A stretch of DNA of 55,607 bases from IMG/VR virus record IMGVR_UViG_3300030098_002332, positions 1 to 55,607 of that record, one strand, 5' to 3'. This stretch comes from a virus. Its lineage: Duplodnaviria > Caudoviricetes. How positions within the stretch are numbered: position 1 is the first letter of the stretch; each line of letters opens with the position of its first letter. The notes under the pieces are model-generated. The model was not told where the DNA came from. It ran no database searches and was given only the letters and a program-made list of their open reading frames with translations. Both the position numbers and the translations under genes were made by a program. Shown piece by piece: positions 16,021 through 47,775 of this stretch.

Positions 16021-16319
16021 TGGATTTTTTAGAAGACATGGAACTCTATGAAGAGGCAATGAAAAACGCTTATCAAATTATAACTAAAAAGAAAACTTTA
16101 GATGACATTTACTATGATCTAGAAGAAGGAAAAATAAATAGATTACCACTACCTTTTGACCCTCTTAGTGAGGATGGTAGAAGTGAAGATGTAATAGATG
16201 TTGTTATAGAGTATTTTACTAGTATAGAAGAATACGAAAAATGTGCAGAGTTAGTTAAAATTAAAAATAAATGTTTAAAAACACCGATAGAGTCAGAAGA
16301 TCAGCAATATCTTTTATAG
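16020..16319 (+). CDS. Small protein with UVR-like motif
   Basis: EEYEKCAELVKI. Confidence 0.6.
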   Translation: MDFLEDMELYEEAMKNAYQIITKKKTLDDIYYDLEEGKINRLPLPFDPLSEDGRSEDVIDVVIEYFTSIEEYEKCAELVKIKNKCLKTPIESEDQQYLL

Positions 16320-18235
16320 ATAATGGTTATTATACAGCTGCTTTACCTGGAACTAAAGATTATTATGATTTTTGGGACGAGGAAAGAAACAGATGTTTGT
16401 ATGGATACACAGATGGTGATATAAGTGTTACAGGATTTCATTATTTTTACCTAAACTATTGTCCTATTGACAGAGCGGTAGATGAAATAATGCCAGATGG
16501 TACTGTACAGTCTAAACGTGAGCGTACATTCCCTAGATTTTACGATGGTGACTGGGAATATTTCCAAGAGATAGATAAAGCAAGAGCACAGAACAAACAT
16601 ATGATTGTTTTGAAAGCAAGGCGTAAAGGATATTCTTATAAAGCTGGATCTATGCTTGCACGTAACTATTTTTTTGTACGTAATTCTAAAAACTTTGTAT
16701 TTGCATCACAAAAAGAATATTTAATTGGTGATGGATTACTTTCTAAAGCGTGGGAGTTTTTATCTTTTATAGATGACCATACTGCATGGGCACAACCAAG
16801 ATTGAGAGATAGAGAAATGACTAAAATGGCTGGATATAAAAAGAAAGTAAATGGTATAGAGATAGAAATGGGTATGAAGTCACAAATTATGGGGGTATCA
16901 CTAAAAGATAACCCAGATAAGGTAAGGGGTAAGGCAGGTGAGCTAGTATTCTTTGAAGAAGCCGGATCATTTCCTGGATTATTAAAAGCATGGGAGGTGA
17001 CTATGCCAACAATGCGTCAAGGAGCAAAAACATTAGGATTAATGATTGCATTTGGTACAGGTGGTACAGAAGGCGCAGATTTTGAGGCTATGGAAGAGAT
17101 ATTTTACAACCCAGAAGCATATGATTGTATGAACTATGATAATATATGGGATGAAGGAGCAATGGGTAGTCAATGTGGATATTTTATACCTATACAAAAA
17201 AATTTAGATGGATTTATAGATGATGAAGGTAATTCTTTAGCAAATAAAGCTATAGAATATGAAAAAGAAATGAGGGAAAAGAAGAAAGGTGCTGCAGATG
17301 CAAAATCATTAGACCAATATATAGCTGAGCACCCTTTTTCTCCTCAAGAAGCTACATTACAAGTAACAGCTAATTTATTTGATGTAGCATCTTTACAAGA
17401 ACAGTATAATAACATAAAAGCAAATAATTTACACTCTGTAGGTACAGTTGGTAGATTATATTATGCATCTGACAATCAAATTAAATTTAAACCAGACGGA
17501 GATCTAAAACAAATACTAAAATTTCCACATAGAAAAGATGATAATACTACAGGAGCTGTTGTTATATATGAATCACCGTATAAAAATCAGAAACAACAAG
17601 TTCCTTTAAATATGTATGTAATATGTCATGACCCTTATGGTCAAAATCAGTCTGCAGATAGCTCATCTTTAGGAGCGGCGTATGTATTAAAAAGACCAAA
17701 CAATATTTCTCATCCTGATGATATTATTGTAGCATCTTATGTAGGTAGACCAAAAACACAAGATGAATATAATAGAAATTTGTTTATGTTAGCAGATTAT
17801 TATGGGTGTAAGATAGGATTTGAGAACGATCGAGGTGAAGTAATAGCTTATGCAAAAAGACATAGAAAGTTACATAAACTACAGGAAGAATTTGAGATGT
17901 TAGATAAAAAAGAATTGAGAAGTAGAAATGTAAAACGTCAATATGGTATGCATATGACAGAAGCAAGGAAAAGGCAAGGTGAGATATATATAAGAGATTG
18001 GTTAAATACTGTAAGAAGAACTGATGAGAATGGAAATAAATTATTAAACTTGCATAAGATATATGATCCTGCATTATTAACAGAGTTAATTAAATTTAAT
18101 CATGCTGGTAACTTTGACCGGGTAATGGCGTTAATGATTGGTATGTATCACACTAGAGAATTGTATAATGCAGAAGTAAAAGAAATACTAGAAGATAGGT
18201 CAGCCGATAAATGGTTTGATCAAAATTATTATTAA
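16271..18235 (+). CDS. terL: Terminase large subunit
   Basis: LKARRKGYS (Walker A), VFFEEAG (Walker B), GTGG, nuclease ICHDPY, FENDRG, FDRVMA. Confidence 0.92.
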   Translation: MFKNTDRVRRSAISFIDNGYYTAALPGTKDYYDFWDEERNRCLYGYTDGDISVTGFHYFYLNYCPIDRAVDEIMPDGTVQSKRERTFPRFYDGDWEYFQEIDKARAQNKHMIVLKARRKGYSYKAGSMLARNYFFVRNSKNFVFASQKEYLIGDGLLSKAWEFLSFIDDHTAWAQPRLRDREMTKMAGYKKKVNGIEIEMGMKSQIMGVSLKDNPDKVRGKAGELVFFEEAGSFPGLLKAWEVTMPTMRQGAKTLGLMIAFGTGGTEGADFEAMEEIFYNPEAYDCMNYDNIWDEGAMGSQCGYFIPIQKNLDGFIDDEGNSLANKAIEYEKEMREKKKGAADAKSLDQYIAEHPFSPQEATLQVTANLFDVASLQEQYNNIKANNLHSVGTVGRLYYASDNQIKFKPDGDLKQILKFPHRKDDNTTGAVVIYESPYKNQKQQVPLNMYVICHDPYGQNQSADSSSLGAAYVLKRPNNISHPDDIIVASYVGRPKTQDEYNRNLFMLADYYGCKIGFENDRGEVIAYAKRHRKLHKLQEEFEMLDKKELRSRNVKRQYGMHMTEARKRQGEIYIRDWLNTVRRTDENGNKLLNLHKIYDPALLTELIKFNHAGNFDRVMALMIGMYHTRELYNAEVKEILEDRSADKWFDQNYY

Positions 18236-18572
18236 TATGAATAAATGTAAAAAGAAAAAACCTTATAACCCTCTACCAGAATACTTAATGATAGGTCCAT
18301 CAAACATACACGGGGCGGGAATCCTAGCTAAAGAAGATATTCCGGGAGAGGTAGTTATAGGTATAAGTCATGTGTACGACCCAAATTTTCAACATGATTA
18401 TATACGTACACCTCTAGGTGGTTTTATAAACCATTCTGATAAACCTAACTGTGAGTTAATAGATGATGATGAAAATACGGATTATAAAAAATTAAAAACC
18501 ATAAAAAAAATAGAAACAGGAGAAGAATTAACTTTAAAGTATGGTTTATATGATATATGTAACTACTTGTAG
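18216..18572 (+). CDS. SET-domain protein (putative lysine methyltransferase)
   Basis: SNIHGAGILAKEDI, FINHSDKPNC, IETGEELTLKYG. Confidence 0.88.
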   Translation: MIKIIINMNKCKKKKPYNPLPEYLMIGPSNIHGAGILAKEDIPGEVVIGISHVYDPNFQHDYIRTPLGGFINHSDKPNCELIDDDENTDYKKLKTIKKIETGEELTLKYGLYDICNYL

Positions 18573-18648: not shown

Positions 18649-20949
18649 ATGGGATACGATAAAATACCTAGGCAGAAACTGCCTATGAGCAAAAAAACAA
18701 AAAAGTGGAGAGAGTCTTGTGTAGAAGCATACATAGAGCTTTCTAATTCAGGTAGAAGTTCTGGAAGTAATAGAAAAGAATCTCTACAACAACTATATGA
18801 ATACTATAACGGTGTAATTGACGAGGCGGATTATAAATACGTGCTAAAACCATACGGTAAAAGCCGTAGTAACTTCCCTTCTGAAATGCGTAATTATCCC
18901 ATAATTAAACCTATCGTTGATCTTTTGTTAGGTGAGAAATCCAAAAGACCTCTCAATTTCACTGTTACAGTACAAAATGCAGACACAGTTTCTACTAAGG
19001 AACAGGCTTTAAAAGATTTGATATATCAAAACTTTCAAAAACAATTTGCAAATGAATTGATAAAAACAGGCAAGTTTCAAGGAGAGCTAAACGAGGTGCA
19101 ACTGCCTAAACATATACAAGAACAATTTGAAGCATCCTATGTAGACAATAGAGCAATTAAAGGACAACAAGCTTTAGATTATATTATGCATAGTCAAGAA
19201 CTACATGATAAATTTCAAAAAGCATGGTTTCATTTTTTAGTTTCTGGAGAATGTTATACACATAGAGGTGTAAGAAATAATGAACCGTTTTATGAAGTAT
19301 TAAACCCACTTGACGTAGACTATGACCTTGACCCAGATTTAGATTTTGTAGAAGATGGTGATTGGGCTATTGTTAGAAAATATGTACACGCATCTAGTGT
19401 AATAGATTCTTATTATGATTATTTAACTGAACAACAAATACTAGAATTAGAAGAGCCAAGACATTCTGAGTCTGACTCATATTTTTTATATACTAATTCT
19501 ATGAATAAAGATCCAAATGCATATAGAAATAGATTAATAGAAGTTGCACATGTATATTGGAAATCTAGAAAAAGAATTGGATTTTTATCTTTTAACGATC
19601 CTCAGACAGGAGCTATGGAAGAAAAAATAGTAGAAGATGGATTTAGAATGTCAGAAGATCTTAAGATGATAGGAGCTAAAATGGATTGGAGATGGGTAAA
19701 CGAAGTTTGGGAAGGAACAAGAATTGATGGTAGGATGTATGTTAAGATACACCCAGTAGTAAACCAAAGAAATGATATAGATAATAATTCTGTTTGTAAA
19801 CTTCCTATTAATGGTATTAGATATTCTAATATAAACTCTTCAAATATATCTTTAGTAAAATTAGGTATACCTTACCAGTTAAATTACAATATATATAAAT
19901 ATAGATTAGAGCTTGCAATAGCTAGAAGTAAAGATATTATTGCACAGTTTGATATAAATATGATTCCTAAAAAATGGGACATGGATAAGTTTATGTACTA
20001 TGTAGAAGGAACAGGTATTGCTTGGGTAGACTACAATAAAGAAGGAATACAACTAAATCCACAACACCAATCTGTTATGGACATGTCTATAAAAACAATA
20101 GAACAATATATTGCTTTGTTAGAGTCTATAATGCAAGAATGGGAAAAATTATCTGGAGTAAATAGACAAAGACAAGGACAAGTAGGTAGTTATGAGGGTA
20201 AAGCAACATCACAACAGGCTATCGTACAATCATCACATATTACAGAAGACTTGTTCCGTAAATTTAACAGAATGGAACAAAGAGATTTACAAGGTTTGAT
20301 TGACTATTCTAAAGAAGCTTGGTTAGGAGGAAAGAAAACTATGTACATGATGCCTGATGGTACAACAGATTTTTTAGATTTAAATAGTTTAACTCACATG
20401 GAGTCTAACTATGGTATATTTGTTTCTGACTCTGGTAAAGAGCAGGATAAACTAGAAGCAGTTAAAGCTTTATCACAATCTATGATACAAAACGGAGTTC
20501 CAGCATCTACTATTACAGAAATGTTTGATTCTTCTAGCTTTACACAAATAAAACATAAAATTAAATTAGCTGAGCAAGCACAAGAGAAATTAGCACAACA
20601 ACAACAAGAAGCTCAACAACAAATGGAGCAGGCTAAACTTGATCAACAAGCTAAAGAAGCTGACAATGATAATATGAACAAAGAGAAAGATAGAGAAACT
20701 CAAATCAAAGTCGCTATGATACATGCTAGAGATAATGATACTAATGCTAAGTTAAATTTAGCAAAAGGTATGAGAGAGTTAGACATTAAAGACAGAGAAG
20801 TTGATATTAAAGCTAGAGAAGCTGAAGGAAAAGTACAAACAAATAGAGATAATGCAAATCTTAAAAGAGAAGAACAAAGATCTAAAGAAAAAATAGCTAG
20901 AGAAAAAAATAGAGCAGATATAAATAAATCTAAATCTAAGGATAAATAA
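18649..20949 (+). CDS. Portal protein
   Basis: 766 aa after TerL; NYPIIKPIVDLLLGE, WVNEVWEGTRI, coiled-coil C-terminus typical of crAss-like portals. Confidence 0.88.
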   Translation: MGYDKIPRQKLPMSKKTKKWRESCVEAYIELSNSGRSSGSNRKESLQQLYEYYNGVIDEADYKYVLKPYGKSRSNFPSEMRNYPIIKPIVDLLLGEKSKRPLNFTVTVQNADTVSTKEQALKDLIYQNFQKQFANELIKTGKFQGELNEVQLPKHIQEQFEASYVDNRAIKGQQALDYIMHSQELHDKFQKAWFHFLVSGECYTHRGVRNNEPFYEVLNPLDVDYDLDPDLDFVEDGDWAIVRKYVHASSVIDSYYDYLTEQQILELEEPRHSESDSYFLYTNSMNKDPNAYRNRLIEVAHVYWKSRKRIGFLSFNDPQTGAMEEKIVEDGFRMSEDLKMIGAKMDWRWVNEVWEGTRIDGRMYVKIHPVVNQRNDIDNNSVCKLPINGIRYSNINSSNISLVKLGIPYQLNYNIYKYRLELAIARSKDIIAQFDINMIPKKWDMDKFMYYVEGTGIAWVDYNKEGIQLNPQHQSVMDMSIKTIEQYIALLESIMQEWEKLSGVNRQRQGQVGSYEGKATSQQAIVQSSHITEDLFRKFNRMEQRDLQGLIDYSKEAWLGGKKTMYMMPDGTTDFLDLNSLTHMESNYGIFVSDSGKEQDKLEAVKALSQSMIQNGVPASTITEMFDSSSFTQIKHKIKLAEQAQEKLAQQQQEAQQQMEQAKLDQQAKEADNDNMNKEKDRETQIKVAMIHARDNDTNAKLNLAKGMRELDIKDREVDIKAREAEGKVQTNRDNANLKREEQRSKEKIAREKNRADINKSKSKDK

Positions 20950-23522
20950 TGCTGAGTTCTAAGGAACAGATGGAAATAATCAAAGCAGCTATTGATAGAA
21001 AATATCAAGGTCCTGTATATGAATTGATAGAACAGGCTATGATAGAGCGTGCTGCTCAGATAGAACAAAAGCAAAAAGAAGGAGATCAAAATCAACCTTT
21101 ACAACCAGTATCTTTAGGGTCTATAGATCCAGAAGTTCAGGAGCCAACATCTACAGAAAGAAATATAATAATGCCTGGTCAATATAAAGATGGAGGTGTA
21201 AAAGAAGATAAAGATCAAGTTGCATTAAATGTTTATTATCCAGAGGTAGAGGTAACTGGGAATCGTTTAGAGCCTGCAATAAGTGGTGGTGATATATCTG
21301 AAGTAACTACTGAACCTAAAAAAACTTTGCTAGATAAAATTAAAAATGTTGGTTTGAATTATATTAATCCTTTATTAATTGCAGACAATACATTACAAGC
21401 TTTAAGCATACCTTCTAACATTATTAGAGAAAGCATAGAAGGTATAGGTGGTAAAGGAGATGCTAAGTTTAATTGGAAAGATATTATTCCAGATGTATAC
21501 AATACTACTATATTTGATGAGGATAAAAAACAAGAACCAGTTTCAAAAACATTAGGTGTAGAAGGCTTTTTTCCAAGTTTGCTTGTTGATCTAGCTACAG
21601 ATCCTACAACATATGTAGGCGCAGGAGTTGTTAAAAATCTTGTACAAAAAAGTGGTAAAACAATTTTACCTAAAGTTGGAAAGCAGGTAAAGAAAATAAA
21701 ACCAGGATATAAATCTCAAAGCCCTACTACAACTACAACAACAACTAAACCTACAACAGCTAAGGTTGATAAACCTAAAAACGATATAGTAACCAAAGAA
21801 AATATAATTACACCTACAGCTAAAGAAGATAAACTTATTAATGAGGCTCTAGACAATTCTTCTAACTTTTATCAAAAACAATTTGAGGGGGCTGTTAATC
21901 AGAAGAAATTAGATGAGATGGGTCCGTATGGAGATCAAATAAGACTTAATTATAAAACTAGTCTAGACCTTGGGACTTTTGGATCACAGACTCGTTCAGG
22001 GTTGGGTAGTGATATAAGTCAAATGGGCTATTCTACCACGTTAGATATTAACAAAATTGGTCAAAGACGTGCTGTAGATTTTGATGGTGATTTAAAATTT
22101 CTAGACTATGACGCACCTAATCCTAGAGTAAGTTTTGTAAATAAAAGTCAGAGTCTTATGGGATATAGGCAGAAAAGTAAATTTAGTGTAGGTAAAAATA
22201 TTGGTGGTAAGATAAAAACTCAAGCTGATGTTGATGATAATTTTGTAAAAAGTCTTGGAGAAACTGATATTCATGAAACCTCTCATAATCTTGGTATGCC
22301 TACCAATTTTAAAGCATACTATAGACCCAGCAAAGGAGAGAATGCAGGTAAAATTGTAAGTTATAATCTCCACCCTAATAACATGTTTACTCTTCACAGA
22401 AACAAAAATTTAGTTTTTGACCCAAGGCAACCTGCAATAAGATATGGAGAGGGTATAGCTACAAAAGTTACTGATGAGGGTGTAACATTTACAACAAAAT
22501 GGAATCCAAAAAAAGAACAATTTGACACAGAGTTTGTTAAAAAAAGTGATTTGCCTGTAGATCAATACAATCTCTTGAATACTATGAAAAACAAACCAAG
22601 TAGCCAAAAAAGGTTTAAGAATTTTTTTGAATATAAAAGGCAACCCCTTGAAATAGTTCCTAATATGCAGGCGTTTAAATATCAGGGTAAATATACAGAT
22701 GACCTTTATGGAAATATTGGTTCTGGTACTGCTGACAAACTTTATGGTAAATTAAAAAATTCTGATCGTACGCAATGGGCTTTATTTAGAGATAGTAAGG
22801 CGTTTCAAAATATATTTAATAAATCTACTTATGGTGCTGTGCCTGTTGGAGGTATAGGTGGGGCAACTATATTTAATAATAAAGAAACTAGCACAGGTTA
22901 TAGGAAAGGAGGTTTTAAAAAAGAAAATGGTGGATTTAAAATATCTTTAACAAAAGAAGGTTTTCGTCCTATAGATGATCAGTTCTTTTCTAGATATAGA
23001 TATTACAAAGGTAAAAGTTGTGAAGAAACAGATTCAGCATGTTCTTACAGACCAAACACTACAATAGGGTTTAATGCAGGAGATAGATCTTTATTTGCAT
23101 CATATACTCCAGAAATTGAAGTTCCTCTTGGAGGAGATAGAATAAGAACAGGTGGGGGTATCTTAGCACTAGGCACAAACTTTGAAGGAACTTTAGATAA
23201 GGATTTAAATATTGATAGCTCTATAACAGGTACTGGTAGAATTGGTTGGAACAGATATGAACGTAGACAAGAAAATCAAGGATTAATAAATCCTTTTACT
23301 GGTAAGAGAATGGACAAAGTTAGACCACAAGTAGAAGCTGGTATTTATGGTAACTATGATTTACAAAATAAAAATATAAAAGATGTTGGTTTGTATGGAA
23401 GGTATGGAGCTTTGTCAGGTAATTTAGGATATGACTTAACAGACAAACAAGTCAAAGCTGGAATAGGATTAAAATTTAAAGAAGGAGGGAAAAAAAGAAA
23501 ATGTAGATATGGATGCTGGTAA
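20949..23522 (+). CDS. Composite virion cargo-like protein: HExxH zincin-like region plus C-terminal beta-rich region, punctuated by xxGG motifs
   Basis: DIHETSHNLG; YKDGG, YRKGG, KKENGG, FKEGG; DLATDPTTYVGAG. Confidence 0.55.
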   Translation: MLSSKEQMEIIKAAIDRKYQGPVYELIEQAMIERAAQIEQKQKEGDQNQPLQPVSLGSIDPEVQEPTSTERNIIMPGQYKDGGVKEDKDQVALNVYYPEVEVTGNRLEPAISGGDISEVTTEPKKTLLDKIKNVGLNYINPLLIADNTLQALSIPSNIIRESIEGIGGKGDAKFNWKDIIPDVYNTTIFDEDKKQEPVSKTLGVEGFFPSLLVDLATDPTTYVGAGVVKNLVQKSGKTILPKVGKQVKKIKPGYKSQSPTTTTTTTKPTTAKVDKPKNDIVTKENIITPTAKEDKLINEALDNSSNFYQKQFEGAVNQKKLDEMGPYGDQIRLNYKTSLDLGTFGSQTRSGLGSDISQMGYSTTLDINKIGQRRAVDFDGDLKFLDYDAPNPRVSFVNKSQSLMGYRQKSKFSVGKNIGGKIKTQADVDDNFVKSLGETDIHETSHNLGMPTNFKAYYRPSKGENAGKIVSYNLHPNNMFTLHRNKNLVFDPRQPAIRYGEGIATKVTDEGVTFTTKWNPKKEQFDTEFVKKSDLPVDQYNLLNTMKNKPSSQKRFKNFFEYKRQPLEIVPNMQAFKYQGKYTDDLYGNIGSGTADKLYGKLKNSDRTQWALFRDSKAFQNIFNKSTYGAVPVGGIGGATIFNNKETSTGYRKGGFKKENGGFKISLTKEGFRPIDDQFFSRYRYYKGKSCEETDSACSYRPNTTIGFNAGDRSLFASYTPEIEVPLGGDRIRTGGGILALGTNFEGTLDKDLNIDSSITGTGRIGWNRYERRQENQGLINPFTGKRMDKVRPQVEAGIYGNYDLQNKNIKDVGLYGRYGALSGNLGYDLTDKQVKAGIGLKFKEGGKKRKCRYGCW

Positions 23523-24780: not shown

Positions 24781-26235
24781 ATGGCAATTAACGGAACAAA
24801 CATAAGCGTTCAAAAAACGTTTTACAATGACTCGCAAATGACAGACATGAACAGTCTATCAGCTGCATTGTTGGCAAAACCGACTGAGCTGTCTCCAATT
24901 ATTACTCATTTAGCAGGAAAAGACGATAAAAGATTTCCACTATCTTTCTTAACGGAAGGTGTTGGTAACGTAAAATCTATTGACCGCTTGGAGTATGAAT
25001 ATCGTGTGGCAACACATAGATTGAGAACGAGACCAGTAGCGGCGACACCAGCATCAACTTCAAATGTTGGTCTAGGAGGAGCAAGCTTCGAGCTTGAATT
25101 CCCTGACAAGCATTTTGTATTTCCATACGTATTAGTATCTCAAGGAGGTACTCAAGCACGTATAATGAAAGAGCCTCAGCAAGTGGCTGGTGGAACTTCA
25201 TACAAGTATACATTACAATTAGTAAATCCAGCAGCTACAGCAACTGTTGCAGCAGCAGATATTACAGTAGGAGCTCTTTGGGCTCAAATGTATGCACCAG
25301 TAGGAACTGACTTCTCTAGAGGTAATGCTTCTAACTGGGAAACTCCAGGTAAAGTAAGAAATAAACTAACTACAGTTAGAAAATCTTACCACATGTCTGG
25401 AAACGCTAAAGATTATGTAGCAGAGTTTGCTCTACCAACTAAAGGTGGATCTACTACTAAACTTTGGATGGACTACGAAGAGTACTTACACATGCTTGAC
25501 TTTAAAGAAGAGTGTGAAATGTACTACTGGTATGGTCAAAAGACTTATGACTCAAACGGGATCACTTACATGAAAGATGAAAATGGTCAACCAGTTGTTG
25601 TAGGTCCTGGTCTATTAGAGCAAATAGTAAATAAAGATACTTACTCTACTATGACTGAAACAAAAATTAAAAACATCATCGGTGATTTATTTTATCAAAT
25701 GACTGATGCTGCTCAAAAACAAGTAACTCTTTACACTGGTACTGGAGGTGCTAGAGAATTTGATGAGGCGTTAAAAGCTCACTTCTCAGCTGCAGGTAAT
25801 GCATTTAAAGTTGGAGGTGAAAATAGATTCATCACAGGTTCTGGTAGATCATTAGGTTTAACTGGTTACTTTACTACGTACGAGCACGTAGACGGACACA
25901 CTGTAAATGTGGTAAAATTACCATTATTTGATCATGGTGCGGTTGCTCAAGCTCGTGCAAAACACCCTGTTACTGGATACTCTTTAGAATCATACAGAAT
26001 GGTATTTGTTGATCAATCAAATTATGATGGTCAGAATAACCTACAAATGATTTCTAAGAAGGGCCGTGAGGCGATGAGATGGTGTGTAGCTGGATCTGTA
26101 GTCCCTAGAGGATTTAGTTCTACTGACGCTAGAGCATCTGATGTTGATGGGGCGTCTGTACACATGTTAAAAACTGCAGGTATCGCATTAAGACGTTTTG
26201 ATACTTCTTTAGACATTGAGTGTACAGCATCTTAA
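24781..26235 (+). CDS. Major capsid protein (crAss-like)
   Basis: 484 aa with biased codons; FPLSFLTEG, NKLTTVRKS, GPGLLEQI, YTGTGG..EF; followed by hairpin. Confidence 0.85.
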   Translation: MAINGTNISVQKTFYNDSQMTDMNSLSAALLAKPTELSPIITHLAGKDDKRFPLSFLTEGVGNVKSIDRLEYEYRVATHRLRTRPVAATPASTSNVGLGGASFELEFPDKHFVFPYVLVSQGGTQARIMKEPQQVAGGTSYKYTLQLVNPAATATVAAADITVGALWAQMYAPVGTDFSRGNASNWETPGKVRNKLTTVRKSYHMSGNAKDYVAEFALPTKGGSTTKLWMDYEEYLHMLDFKEECEMYYWYGQKTYDSNGITYMKDENGQPVVVGPGLLEQIVNKDTYSTMTETKIKNIIGDLFYQMTDAAQKQVTLYTGTGGAREFDEALKAHFSAAGNAFKVGGENRFITGSGRSLGLTGYFTTYEHVDGHTVNVVKLPLFDHGAVAQARAKHPVTGYSLESYRMVFVDQSNYDGQNNLQMISKKGREAMRWCVAGSVVPRGFSSTDARASDVDGASVHMLKTAGIALRRFDTSLDIECTAS

Positions 26236-39115: not shown

Positions 39116-39397
39116 ATGGCAAAAGAACTAAACGAAGATACAGCGTTTAAGCTAAGTATTAAAACAATGATGGGTCTAGGTTTTGCAATAGTAACTTTAG
39201 CTGGTATGTGGTTTACACTTCAAGCAGATATTGCTGAAGCTAAAGAATTACCTGCTCCACCAGATCCTGAAGTTACACGTATGGAATTTGATATGAAAGA
39301 TCAAATGATACGTCAAACTATATTGGACACACAAGAAGATGTAACTGAAATAAAAGCTACTCTTGAGAAAATTGAAGATAAATTATATAACAGGTAA
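39116..39397 (+). CDS. Single-TM plus coiled-coil membrane protein
   Basis: MAKELNEDT; TM MMGLGFAIVTLAGMWFTL; coiled-coil tail. Confidence 0.6.
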   Translation: MAKELNEDTAFKLSIKTMMGLGFAIVTLAGMWFTLQADIAEAKELPAPPDPEVTRMEFDMKDQMIRQTILDTQEDVTEIKATLEKIEDKLYNR

Positions 39398-39398
39398 A

Positions 39399-39755
39399 AT
39401 GAAAAGTCCAGTATGGAAAATTATGGTAACGTACTTACTTGTGCTATTCTTATTATCTGTCTCGTCAGATGCCTTTTCACAGATTACGATAAAGAGCTTT
39501 AATGCTGGGTGGAATAAGTCTAACGCTGTAGAGTGGTTAAATAAATTAAAAGATGTTAAAACTATTAGTTACATAGATGTTGCTAAAGATGTTAAGGCAC
39601 AAAAGAAATATAAGATAGCAGCTGTGCCTACAATAATAATATTTAAAGATGGTGAAGAAGTTGCAAGATTTCAAGCTGATCTTAGTTTTACAATGGTAGC
39701 TACAAAAGAAGAAGTACAAGAAGAAATAGATAATCAATTAATGAGTGATTTTTAA
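39399..39755 (+). CDS. Exported thioredoxin-fold protein lacking CxxC
   Basis: Signal peptide (SDAFS/Q); FNAGWNKSN at the WCxxC position; YKIAAVPTIIIFKDGEEVARF. Confidence 0.7.
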   Translation: MKSPVWKIMVTYLLVLFLLSVSSDAFSQITIKSFNAGWNKSNAVEWLNKLKDVKTISYIDVAKDVKAQKKYKIAAVPTIIIFKDGEEVARFQADLSFTMVATKEEVQEEIDNQLMSDF

Positions 39756-42345: not shown

Positions 42346-42834
42346 ATGGAAAGAATAAGTAAACATATAAGCTGGAAAGAGGGTACTTATAGCAGGACAG
42401 GCGAAAGGCTGGATTTAGACAACACTCCTAACGAGGATCAAATAAAATGTATGAAAGAAGTTGCAGAAAACTTGTTTGAACCATTAAGAGAATGGGTTGG
42501 AGGTCCTATAAAAATTAATAGTTTTTTTAGAGGAAAACCTGTCAATACAGCTATTGGGGGATCTAAAACCTCACAACATATGAAAGGTCAAGCTATAGAT
42601 ATAGATGATACTTTTGGACATAAAACAAATGCAGAGATGTATCATTATATAAAAGATAATTTAGACTTTGATCAAATGGTGTGGGAGTTTGGTGGTGAAT
42701 ATCCTGACGGTAATCCTAACTGGGTTCATATTAGTTGGGTGTCACACAGACCTAATAGAAAGCAAGAAGTTATTGCTATTAAGAAAAACGGTAAAACTAA
42801 ATATATAAAAGATATTGAAAATTATATAAAGTGA
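42346..42834 (+). CDS. Peptidase M15-family endolysin
   Basis: INSFFR, SQHMKGQAIDID, WVHIS. Confidence 0.85.
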   Translation: MERISKHISWKEGTYSRTGERLDLDNTPNEDQIKCMKEVAENLFEPLREWVGGPIKINSFFRGKPVNTAIGGSKTSQHMKGQAIDIDDTFGHKTNAEMYHYIKDNLDFDQMVWEFGGEYPDGNPNWVHISWVSHRPNRKQEVIAIKKNGKTKYIKDIENYIK

Positions 42835-44327: not shown

Positions 44328-44714
44328 ATGTTAGATAAAATATTTGCCGGAGGGGCAGCAGAATTAGTAAAAGGTGTAGGTGGTGTTATAGATAATTTAC
44401 ATACATCTAAAGAAGAAAAGCTTGAGGCTGAAAAACAAATAAAAGATATGATAATGGGTTACGAGGCAGAAATGCAAAAACAAGTAACTGAAAGATGGGG
44501 TATGGATATGAAATCTGATTCATGGCTCAGTAAAAACATAAGACCTTTAGTACTTATATTTTTAGTAGTAGCAACAGTATTATTAATATTTATTGATGCT
44601 GGTGTTATTGCTTTTGAAGTAAAAAATACTTGGGTTGATTTATTACAACTAGTATTGATAACAGTGATTGGAGCTTACTTTGGCGGTAGATCACTAGAAA
44701 AAGTAAAAAAATAA
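44328..44714 (+). CDS. Holin (3TM/GTA-holin-like)
   Basis: DNLHTSKEEK, SDSWLSKNIRPL, TM helices, GAYFGGRSLEK. Confidence 0.8.
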   Translation: MLDKIFAGGAAELVKGVGGVIDNLHTSKEEKLEAEKQIKDMIMGYEAEMQKQVTERWGMDMKSDSWLSKNIRPLVLIFLVVATVLLIFIDAGVIAFEVKNTWVDLLQLVLITVIGAYFGGRSLEKVKK

Positions 44715-45432: not shown

Positions 45433-46737
45433 ATGAAAAAAATGATGTATAAAAAAGCAGGTAAAAAGATGAAAAAAGGTGGCAAGTCATCTTTTGGTAT
45501 GCTAAGTGTAAAAGCAGGATATGATAATAATCCTAACCCTACTGCTGCCGATAGAATTGTTGGGGCTAAAAAGAATAAAATGAAAAAAGGAGGTAAGAAA
45601 AAAATGATGAGTTATGGTATGGGAGGTAAGAAAAAAATGGGCTACAATATGGGAGGTATGCAACAAACTACTCCTCCAGCAGCTTCTTTTATAGAACCAC
45701 CAATTGAACAACCTTTTATGCAACAACCTATGGCTCAACAAAACCCAGCAGAGTTTACAGCTAAAAAAGGAGGTAAAAGAAAGAAGTCAAAAAAAGGAAT
45801 GGGTGGTAAAAAAATGATGACGTATAAAAAAGGTGGAGTAAAGAAAGAAAATGGAGGAGAAGATGAAAACCTTTCTATGAGGGAGTTAAGAAAAAAACAA
45901 AGAGAAGAGAGAAGAGAGGCTCGTAGAAATAGACGTTCAGATAGAAAAGCAGATAGAGAAGCTGTTAGAACATTAAAAAGAACTTCTAGGCTAAAGAGAA
46001 GAGACAAGATAAATGATGCAGGAGAAGAAACAGGAATGACTAGATCTGAAAGAAGAATGGATAGAAGAGCTACAAGAAGAGCTTCTAGAACATTTAGAAA
46101 GCAAGAAAGACAAGCTAGAAGAACAGCAAGAAAAGATATGAGGGCTAAACAAAGATCTGAAAGATCAGATTTAAGAACTAGAAGAAAAGCAGCTCAAGAT
46201 AAATTAACTCAAGATAAATTAGACAAGTTAAATAAATCTGAAAGCTCTTCTGTTAAGCCGGCACCAGTTAAAAAAGATACTACACCTAAGACGAATACAG
46301 ATAATAAACCAAAAACTGAAGAGAAAAAAACAGAAACTAAAAAAGTTACTAATCATGGTGTAACTAATGACATGTCTTTTAGTAAAGCATTTAGAACAGC
46401 TCGTGATTCTCACGGAGGTAAGGGTGGTGTATTTACTTGGAAAGGTAAAAAATATCATACCGGACTAAAAGAAGAAATGAAGAAAAAACAAACGGAAGAG
46501 GAAAGAAAAAAAGAATTACAAGGAGATAAAGGAAAAGAAAAGAAAAAGGACGAAACTCCAATTAAACAAAAACAAAAGACAAGCACTACGCCAAAAACTA
46601 AAGAGCAACATGCAAATCAAGGAACAACATATAATAGGAAAAAAGCTCCTGTTGGTAATGAAGTTTTGATGAGTGGTCCTAAATATAAAAAAGGAGGTTA
46701 CAAAATGGGGTACAGAAGAAGAGGCGGTAGAAAATAA
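45433..46737 (+). CDS. Highly basic Lys/Arg-rich protein with many xxxGG motifs (putative DNA-binding core/cargo)
   Basis: MKKGG, YGMGG, YNMGG, YKKGG repeats; Arg-rich protamine-like helix; FSKAFRTAR..FTWKGKKYHT domain. Confidence 0.65.
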   Translation: MKKMMYKKAGKKMKKGGKSSFGMLSVKAGYDNNPNPTAADRIVGAKKNKMKKGGKKKMMSYGMGGKKKMGYNMGGMQQTTPPAASFIEPPIEQPFMQQPMAQQNPAEFTAKKGGKRKKSKKGMGGKKMMTYKKGGVKKENGGEDENLSMRELRKKQREERREARRNRRSDRKADREAVRTLKRTSRLKRRDKINDAGEETGMTRSERRMDRRATRRASRTFRKQERQARRTARKDMRAKQRSERSDLRTRRKAAQDKLTQDKLDKLNKSESSSVKPAPVKKDTTPKTNTDNKPKTEEKKTETKKVTNHGVTNDMSFSKAFRTARDSHGGKGGVFTWKGKKYHTGLKEEMKKKQTEEERKKELQGDKGKEKKKDETPIKQKQKTSTTPKTKEQHANQGTTYNRKKAPVGNEVLMSGPKYKKGGYKMGYRRRGGRK

Positions 46738-47208: not shown

Positions 47209-47775
47209 ATGTCTGATAAAAAAAGAAAAAGAAAAGTTACTAAGGGGTATGTTAAAGATGCTAGATCTAAAAAAGTAGTTAAAACAAATAGAAGAGGGAC
47301 AACTACTACTAAAGAAAAAGTTGATCAGTACAACAAACAGTATCTAGGTCGTGACCCTGAAAACATTAAATATAATGATAAAAACATTTGGTCAAGAAGA
47401 TTTAAATCTAAAGTAAACAAAGAGGGAGAAGAAACTAAACGTAAAGAAAAAATTGTTTTTGATGATGGAAATCAAATGACAAAGCGTACACAACGTAAAG
47501 TTAGATTTGGTAAAAATAAAGGTAAAATAAAAATAAAAACTGTGAACTATAATAGAGGTAAGAAAACTAAAGATGTAAAGTATGCAGATAAAACAGATCA
47601 AATGATGCTTAAGAAAGGAGGAAAGAGAAAAGGATCTGATGGTAAAGCGTGTTGGAAAGGTTATTACTATGCAGGTTACGATGCTAAGAATAAAAAAGAC
47701 ATCTGTAAGCCTATAAAGAAAAAAGAAATGGGCGGATTCTTAGAAGGACCTACACCACTATTATTTGAAGATTAA
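47209..47775 (+). CDS. Lys-rich basic protein
   Basis: LKKGG, CWKGY..C module, C-terminal MGGFLEGP. Confidence 0.6.
   Translation: MSDKKRKRKVTKGYVKDARSKKVVKTNRRGTTTTKEKVDQYNKQYLGRDPENIKYNDKNIWSRRFKSKVNKEGEETKRKEKIVFDDGNQMTKRTQRKVRFGKNKGKIKIKTVNYNRGKKTKDVKYADKTDQMMLKKGGKRKGSDGKACWKGYYYAGYDAKNKKDICKPIKKKEMGGFLEGPTPLLFED

Follow-up and report, generated by a model that had tools for sequence, protein, structure and literature searches.

What does a SET-domain gene do in a phage that carries it between terminase and portal, and which proteins would its product modify? We addressed this question in a linear IMG/VR virus record (IMGVR_UViG_3300030098_002332; 55.6 kb, 33% G+C, estimated completeness 64%), all 55,607 nucleotides of which are referred to here as the window. 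Its SET gene encodes a protein of 111 amino acids (aa) that, by identity, is very likely a minimal SET lysine methyltransferase. Comparison with related loci marks the gene as an insertion between terL and portal in one marine crAss-like lineage, where it is under purifying selection. We give about an even chance to the reading that it encodes an accessory SET enzyme for which a host target or a generic basic-protein target is likelier than the KKGG repeats of the phage's own Lys-rich proteins, the substrates favoured by the original prediction.

The SET protein and its place in the packaging module

The longest open reading frame (ORF) at this locus begins at a TTG (18216..18572, + strand) and overlaps the 3' end of the gene for the terminase large subunit (TerL). 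The ATG at 18237 appears to be the likelier start; it lies one base beyond the TerL stop and yields 111 aa, matching the nearest relatives (mostly 110 to 112 aa). The protein matches the Pfam SET family (PF00856) with an E value of 8.7e-10 and 39.4 bits (cut-off, 22.4), and a six-frame search of the record agrees. This match spans the C-terminal half alone (residues 62 to 103), and the match to PHROG 28741 covers essentially the full-length profile (E value 5.7e-25; residues 10 to 107 on profile positions 3 to 98 of 100). In NCBIfam, the protein matches only LegAS4, below threshold (17 bits versus 550), and PADLOC returned no match. SET is the sole domain, so the protein is a stand-alone core like that of vSET-type minimal viral SET proteins.

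The original prediction of a minimal SET domain with intact motifs was borne out by the Pfam match, by the motifs themselves, and by structural comparison. The GxG, NHSxxPN, and ELxxxY motifs that define SET domains are all kept, including the tyrosine (Table 1). In an alignment of 64 diverse relatives, P12, G28, G42, R57, E97, and Y102 are invariant, and G26, N65-H66-S67, and P70-N71 are conserved in at least 90% of the sequences. Modeling with AlphaFold2 gave a predicted local distance difference test score (pLDDT) of 90 and a predicted template modeling score (pTM) of 0.77. A profile of the 64 relatives, compared with solved structures, matched the SET domain of MLL4 (E value 1.2e-11) and vSET of Paramecium bursaria chlorella virus 1 (E value 1.5e-9, positions 10 to 96 of 104). 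Foldseek searches with the model identified the MLL1 SET domain (E value 1.2e-6) and vSET (PDB: 3kma, template modeling scores 0.64/0.68), with a probability of 1.00 to many SET structures. VIA-align returned Z scores of 11.7 for MLL3 and 11.4 for vSET (root-mean-square deviation 2.5 Å, 90 residues aligned, chain length 105), and Z scores of 10 to 11.7 across SET structures place the modeled protein within the SET beta-fold. From sequence and model we infer that the enzyme is probably catalytically active. It would move a methyl group from S-adenosylmethionine (SAM) to the epsilon-amino group of protein lysines, with GxG, part of the cofactor pocket in solved SET domains, and NHSxxPN forming that pocket and the tyrosine of EELTxxY closing the lysine channel.

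The placement of the gene in the packaging module, also claimed from the bare sequence, held up as well: TerL and portal profiles match the two flanking genes, and 76 nt separate the SET stop from the portal start. TerL, portal, and major head protein all match crAss-type PHROGs. The best tblastn matches of TerL in the phage collection are crAss-like phages (approximately 42% identity), with Flavobacterium and Cellulophaga phages next, and at least half of the window stretch is present in nine marine metagenome runs. On the crAss-type matches and the marine metagenome presence, the window is therefore identified as a marine crAss-like phage, an informal assignment made from TerL, portal, and head protein matches. 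A megablast search of the phage collection with the stretch from TerL through SET to portal returned no hit. No terminator-like site was found on the + strand between TerL and portal, and the SET gene is therefore likely to be co-transcribed with the late genes.

The position of the gene is fixed across its clade. IMG/VR contains 244 SET relatives, the best 80 loci of which were used for the clade analysis; among 3,071 database matches, the best 120 share 78% to 93% identity with the SET protein. TerL ends at most 200 nt upstream of the SET gene in all 78 loci that have at least 300 nt of upstream sequence, and the portal gene starts at most 300 nt downstream in all 75 loci that have at least 400 nt downstream. 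In these loci, identity is 77% to 90% for SET, which is in the range of TerL (76% to 97%) and above that of portal (58% to 96%). Seventy of the 80 loci gave a full-length match and were analyzed for selection together with the window (71 sequences; the 10 others were excluded). All 71 copies are free of stop codons and identical at the motif residues, with a median ratio of nonsynonymous to synonymous substitution rates (dN/dS) of 0.14 (median dS, 0.76). By comparison, four reference crAss-like phages (cr114_1, Fpv3, crAss001, and phi14:2) have the portal gene directly after TerL with no gene at the junction, and no SET gene was found anywhere in their records. The gene is thus an insertion that became fixed between terL and portal in one lineage, where it is probably transcribed along with the late packaging genes. 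Its absence from this junction in the reference phages and the mobility of the family described below would also suit a recently acquired passenger that plays no role in the phage life cycle. We regard this as highly improbable, given the constant position in all informative relatives (78 for TerL and 75 for portal), whose portals fall to 58% identity, the low dN/dS, and the lack of any broken copy among the 71.

Table 1. Coordinates of the SET gene, its motifs, and other features of the window
Feature	Position	Strand	Evidence or remark
Stand-alone minimal SET-domain gene, 111 aa + stop	18237..18572	+	Pfam SET, PHROG 28741, AlphaFold2 model, dN/dS
G26-A-G28, GxG motif of the SET N-terminal strand	18312..18320	+	Aligns with GLG of the MLL3/MLL4 SET domain
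N65-H-S-D-K-P-N71, NHSxxPN motif	18429..18449	+	Aligns with NHSCAPN of MLL3/MLL4
E96-E-L-T-L-K-Y102, EELTxxY motif with conserved tyrosine	18522..18542	+	Aligns with EELTYDY of MLL4
TerL (terminase large subunit)	16271..18235	+	Upstream neighbor of SET gene; phrog_6681, E value 3.6e-137
Portal protein	18649..20949	+	Downstream neighbor; phrog_6547, E value 3e-128; Pfam P22_portal
Major head protein	24781-26235		phrog_11589
HU/IHF-like ORF, 74 aa	14828-15052	+	PF00216, E value 4.4e-8, profile positions 2-58 of 90
Lys/Arg-rich 434-aa protein with KKGG repeats, K 20%	45433..46737	+	Motif counts
Lys-rich 188-aa protein, one KKGGK, C-terminal MGGF..E..TP motif	47209..47775	+	Shuffle P 0.08

SET relatives in other phages and in bacteria

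The family is very large. A whole-library search returned at least 1,000 clusters at 50% identity, 407 of them at an E value of 1e-10 or better, and most of the 150 family clusters listed are stand-alone proteins of approximately 95 to 140 aa. Among longer proteins, only 10 relatives reach at least 196 aa, none with a second Pfam domain; a scan of 10 longer representatives found Amidoligase_2 in one and SET alone in nine. The exception (P0211, 363 aa) joins an Amidoligase_2 domain (PF12224) to a mini-SET domain.

Profile scanning of IMG/VR yielded at least 599 SET relatives. We examined 60 further viral loci (L092 to L151), three of which fall in the clade and 57 outside it. SET is flanked by TerL and portal in none of these 57; six have a distant TerL (20% to 27% identity) 0.8 to 5 kb away, and 51 have neither TerL nor portal in the flanks examined. 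Other marine phages carry SET relatives at 44% to 74% identity in other gene contexts. Among these are Pelagibacter phage Kolga and the cyanophages P-SSM7 and P-RSM6, with SET identities of 45% to 47%. The Kolga gene (gp27) adjoins that of an AAA protein and shares its strand with the replication genes, and the P-SSM7 gene (204) comes after nrdA/nrdB, near talC, hli, and psbA. At two further viral loci (L095 and L099), an ORF of 1,800 to 1,850 aa precedes the SET gene. The same 619-aa minus-strand neighbor as at these loci accompanies a partial SET gene (L155, 75% identity) at the end of a 120-kb metagenome-assembled genome (MAG) contig labeled Rickettsiales, which may be a binned phage or prophage.

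Cells carry the gene too. The bacterial and archaeal genome collection holds 260 SET relatives on contigs of up to 4.49 Mb from MAGs and single-cell genomes, with labels that include Marinimicrobia, Opitutales, Pelagibacteraceae, Flavobacteriaceae, SAR86, Porticoccaceae, and Saccharibacteria. Their gene contexts are chromosomal and conserved within lineages. Three flavobacterial loci have the mini-SET gene between an argC-like gene and proC (e.g., L164, 3679-5746), and in Porticoccaceae-labeled loci it follows fabA and fabB. In 15 of 80 cellular loci, mostly with Marinimicrobia labels, metK lies at most 400 nt from the mini-SET gene; at one of them (L160, 5001-7938), the mini-SET gene overlaps the metK start and ahcY comes after metK, an arrangement that resembles an operon joining a methyltransferase to the SAM cycle. 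In Pelagibacteraceae-labeled loci (L206, 1983-6638), the mini-SET gene sits between genes for a class I methyltransferase and an M24 creatinase-like peptidase, and dimethylglycine-dehydrogenase-like genes also adjoin it.

The last two contexts, which belong to methyl-group metabolism, together with the one Amidoligase_2 fusion, could be taken to mean that the SET fold here acts on a substrate other than protein lysine, such as a small amine or a different macromolecule, or that it is a binding module without catalytic activity. We consider this very unlikely. All residues that define a catalytic SET domain are kept and invariant, the closest structures are all protein-lysine methyltransferases, and linkage to metK and ahcY is expected of any SAM-dependent enzyme; moreover, SET enzymes are not known to act on small molecules.

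A tree of the family was built from 146 loci, 136 of which were kept (at least 85 aligned residues and no stop) and combined with the window (137 rows). With only 106 columns, it resolves little beyond three features: viral and cellular rows interleave, with 17 label changes, at least three of which are forced by well-supported branches; Kolga stands beside a Pelagibacteraceae clade, on a long branch and with modest support (Shimodaira-Hasegawa-like approximate likelihood ratio test, 83); and the SET subclade of the window is viral, as discussed below. Read from these sequences, the SET family is one that moves among marine phages and marine bacteria.

Lysine-rich proteins as candidate substrates

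The original prediction named as substrates two very Lys-rich proteins of the window with repeated KKGGK. This description fits the 434-aa protein, which has three KKGGK, five KKGG, and nine [KM]GG motifs. Its five KKGG compare with a mean of 0.15 in shuffled sequences, and none of 5,000 shuffles reached five. It does not fit the 188-aa protein, in which KKGGK occurs a single time, a count that shuffling does not mark as an enrichment (Table 1).

The 434-aa protein has no match in Pfam, PHROG, or NCBIfam, and none in the phage collection. Its family comprises 51 proteins at an E value of 1e-5 or better, approximately 33 with substantial coverage and the rest matching over short segments. Among the 33, the KKGG count ranges from 0 to 5, with none in 12; many carry YKKGG close to the N-terminus, with GGY-RRRGG at the C-terminal end. 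In 24 relatives, MGG (73-75) and G113-G114 are invariant or nearly so, and G421 is invariant. A wider IMG/VR search found one full-length relative and 44 otherwise unrelated loci that share only a module of approximately 40 aa (F..AF..AR....G.F.W.GK.Y.T; residues ~306-350, window 46350-46480). Six relatives (P0284, P0287, P0301, P0311, P0313, and P0315) possess Hint/intein-type Pfam domains (PF07591, PF14890, and in some PF13403) that end in ..VHN directly before the basic C-terminal tail GGY-RRRGG, which suggests that self-cleavage of the domain would free this tail.

Further GG motifs recur among these proteins. The sequence Y-x-[KT]-G-G-F-x-E-x-x-T-P-x-L ends three of them: the 188-aa protein, a 50-aa Lys-rich ORF (L238 1408-1560, - strand), and a 286-aa homologue of the 434-aa protein (L242 1468-2328, - strand), the latter two from clade relatives introduced below as G003 and G004. 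The 434-aa family has a related invariant internal stretch, MGG followed by ..SFIEPP.EQPF; the C-terminal motif may act in virion proteins as a signal for docking or processing. Two copies of the motif Y-[KR]-[KD]-G-G-[VFY]-K are present in the 434-aa protein and two more in an 857-aa protein encoded after portal (20949-23522), with KKENGG following in both. Complex prediction for SET with residues 1 to 150 of the 434-aa protein gave a score of 0.00 against a mark of 0.32; the fold of the partner is itself uncertain, and the score counts neither for nor against the pair.

If the KKGG proteins were the substrates of SET, the two should occur together, a check set beforehand, and as far as it was run the claim fails it. 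Three SET-bearing clade relatives that are nearly or fully complete lack the KKGG-repeat protein. G003 (100% complete) has just the 50-aa Lys-rich ORF at the syntenic place, G004 (98%) has the 286-aa homologue without the KKGG N-terminus, and G002 (97%) has no homologue at an E value of 0.01 or better. G002 does encode a different long protein with two KKGGK: a three-frame translation places both in one long open frame on the minus strand (L239, 70860-73874) that starts beyond the stretch and is absent from the program-made ORF listing. The best homologue of the 434-aa protein is in G001 (79% complete), which has no SET match and also no TerL; it is therefore a fragment and uninformative on co-occurrence.

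Counts of KKGGK-coding sites point the same way, though the exact motif is a narrow probe and small Lys-rich ORFs are found in all these AT-rich genomes. The window has four such sites, and ten clade relatives have 1, 2, 1, 0, 0, 0, 1, 0, 1, and 0. Of 20 SET-bearing viral records from outside the clade, 18 have no site and two have one; P-SSM7 has one. No ORF with more than one KKGG was found in four complete SET-bearing genomes (Kolga, G006, G018, and G022). Among the four SET-less reference crAss-like phages, the counts are 0, 0, 0, and 1, which amount to one phylogenetic contrast and not to independent points. A KKGG-specific enzyme-substrate pair is unlikely on these sequences, because the SET family is spread far wider than the KKGG proteins and, inside the clade, SET persists in members that have lost the repeats.

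A broader version of this idea holds that SET methylates Lys-rich virion or cargo proteins of the phage, be it at the KKGG of the 434-aa and 188-aa proteins or in other basic structural proteins, and thereby tunes DNA condensation, ejection, or processing. It draws on the fixed place of the gene beside TerL and portal in the late operon with no terminator-like site between, on the real KKGG enrichment of the 434-aa protein, on the GG motifs that recur throughout its family, on the non-independent contrast between the window and the SET-less phages, and on precedent. According to a review (PMC3980110), prokaryotic SET proteins have been reported to act on basic DNA-binding proteins: cpnSET of Chlamydia pneumoniae on the H1-like Hc1, and Go1-SET of Methanosarcina mazei on MC1-alpha and bovine H4 Lys5. 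Against it stand the three near-complete relatives without the repeat protein, the low KKGGK counts inside and outside the clade, the 12 of 33 family members without KKGG, and the non-structural contexts of SET in Kolga and P-SSM7 and its chromosomal place in bacteria. We hold it to be rather improbable.

The reading we prefer is that of an accessory gene that would move among marine phages and marine bacteria, with an enzyme whose target would be found among host proteins, or among basic proteins of a generic kind common to many hosts and phages, rather than in KKGG repeats. A host-protein target appears to fit the wide distribution of SET better than a KKGG target does. Several observations weigh against this preference. 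The cellular homologues are patchy: they occur in 11 of 61 sampled genomes in the family of a Pelagibacteraceae-labeled genome and in 3 of 81 in the family of a Flavobacteriaceae-labeled genome (centre genomes counted; many genomes in both samples are incomplete). A universal, conserved host target is therefore not implied. For the same reason, we dropped the idea that the phage SET is a copy of a core host gene. The SET subclade of the window is purely viral, without a close cellular relative on the tree. In addition, five of the six non-clade loci with a distant TerL (L094, L096, L097, L098, and L100) have the most similar SET proteins (66% to 70% identity), with the gene 0.8 to 5 kb upstream of that TerL, so that several related lineages carry SET near the start of the packaging module, at a different junction. 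A place in the late packaging operon, and near TerL in these five further loci, fits a role in virion assembly too. By analogy, basic virion proteins in general remain reasonable substrates, since prokaryotic SET proteins are reported to act on basic DNA-binding proteins (PMC3980110); it is the late-operon position together with these published cases that keeps virion proteins in play.

Other genes around these candidates were annotated in passing. HU/IHF-like proteins had been claimed in the plural; one such ORF was found (Table 1), and its NCBIfam IHF matches are weak and all sub-threshold. The 857-aa protein has no match in Pfam, PHROG, or NCBIfam; it contains an HExxH motif (H-E-T-S-H, residues 442-446, window 22272-22286) that may belong to a metalloprotease domain of a virion protein. 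The structural gene block also includes a thioredoxin-like protein (39363-39755), an M15 peptidase (42346-42834), and an ORF (44328-44714) with a weak, sub-threshold match to a three-transmembrane (3-TM) gene transfer agent (GTA)-type holin; the latter two look like a lysis cassette.

Significance and comparison with known SET enzymes

Protein-lysine methylation by SET enzymes is central in eukaryotic chromatin and barely explored in bacteria and phages. A literature search found no study of the function of a phage SET protein, with subscription journals outside its coverage. A match for crAss-like phages and "SET domain" proved false, as it concerns C2-set domains, and a search for cyanophages and "SET domain" found nothing on phage SET genes. 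The present result is a solid annotation and not a new mechanism. It makes the mini-SET a fixed, strongly conserved gene of a crAss-like lineage that is widespread in marine metagenomes, within a family that extends to pelagiphages, cyanophages, and genomes labeled SAR11, Marinimicrobia, and flavobacteria. Identification of the substrate would reveal phage-host protein modification of a new class and would also yield the smallest natural SET scaffold outside chloroviruses. A bolder proposal, which we think quite unlikely, is that the SET proteins of approximately 100 aa in marine phages and bacteria methylate lysines in basic tails, studded with GG, of proteins that enter and leave the virion together with phage DNA. 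If true, this would be a phage counterpart of chromatin marking that controls condensation, ejection, or processing of cargo proteins, and in the crAss-like clade its production alongside terminase and portal would let the enzyme act during packaging.

Among known systems, vSET (A612L; PDB: 1n3j/3kma) is alike in being a virus-encoded, stand-alone minimal SET protein (119 aa versus 111). Neither protein has pre-SET or post-SET domains, and the profile match is near full length. vSET works as a dimer on histone H3 Lys27. It differs in its sequence, with approximately 21% identity to the phage protein, and in coming from a virus of a eukaryote, whereas the hosts of the phage are bacteria, without histones. 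The best profile and structure matches are SET cores of the MLL/KMT2 type (PDB: 4z4p, 7w6l, and 6u9n), whose GLG, NHSxxPN, and EELTxxY motifs align with those of the phage protein. These eukaryotic enzymes are large proteins with post-SET zinc motifs and depend on partner subunits, whereas the phage protein stops 9 residues past its catalytic tyrosine. For a target in a histone-free cell, Go1-SET and cpnSET are the nearest functional precedent; they are likewise small prokaryotic SET proteins, though encoded by cells and not by a phage, and they are likened here by description. Several uncharacterized mini-SETs form one family with the phage protein: PHROG 28741 (function unknown), Kolga gp27, the product of P-SSM7 gene 204, and, by BFVD matches, the entry [quoted passage not shown]. 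What sets the copy in the window apart from these other phage and bacterial mini-SETs is that a crAss-like lineage keeps it at one fixed place, between terL and portal.

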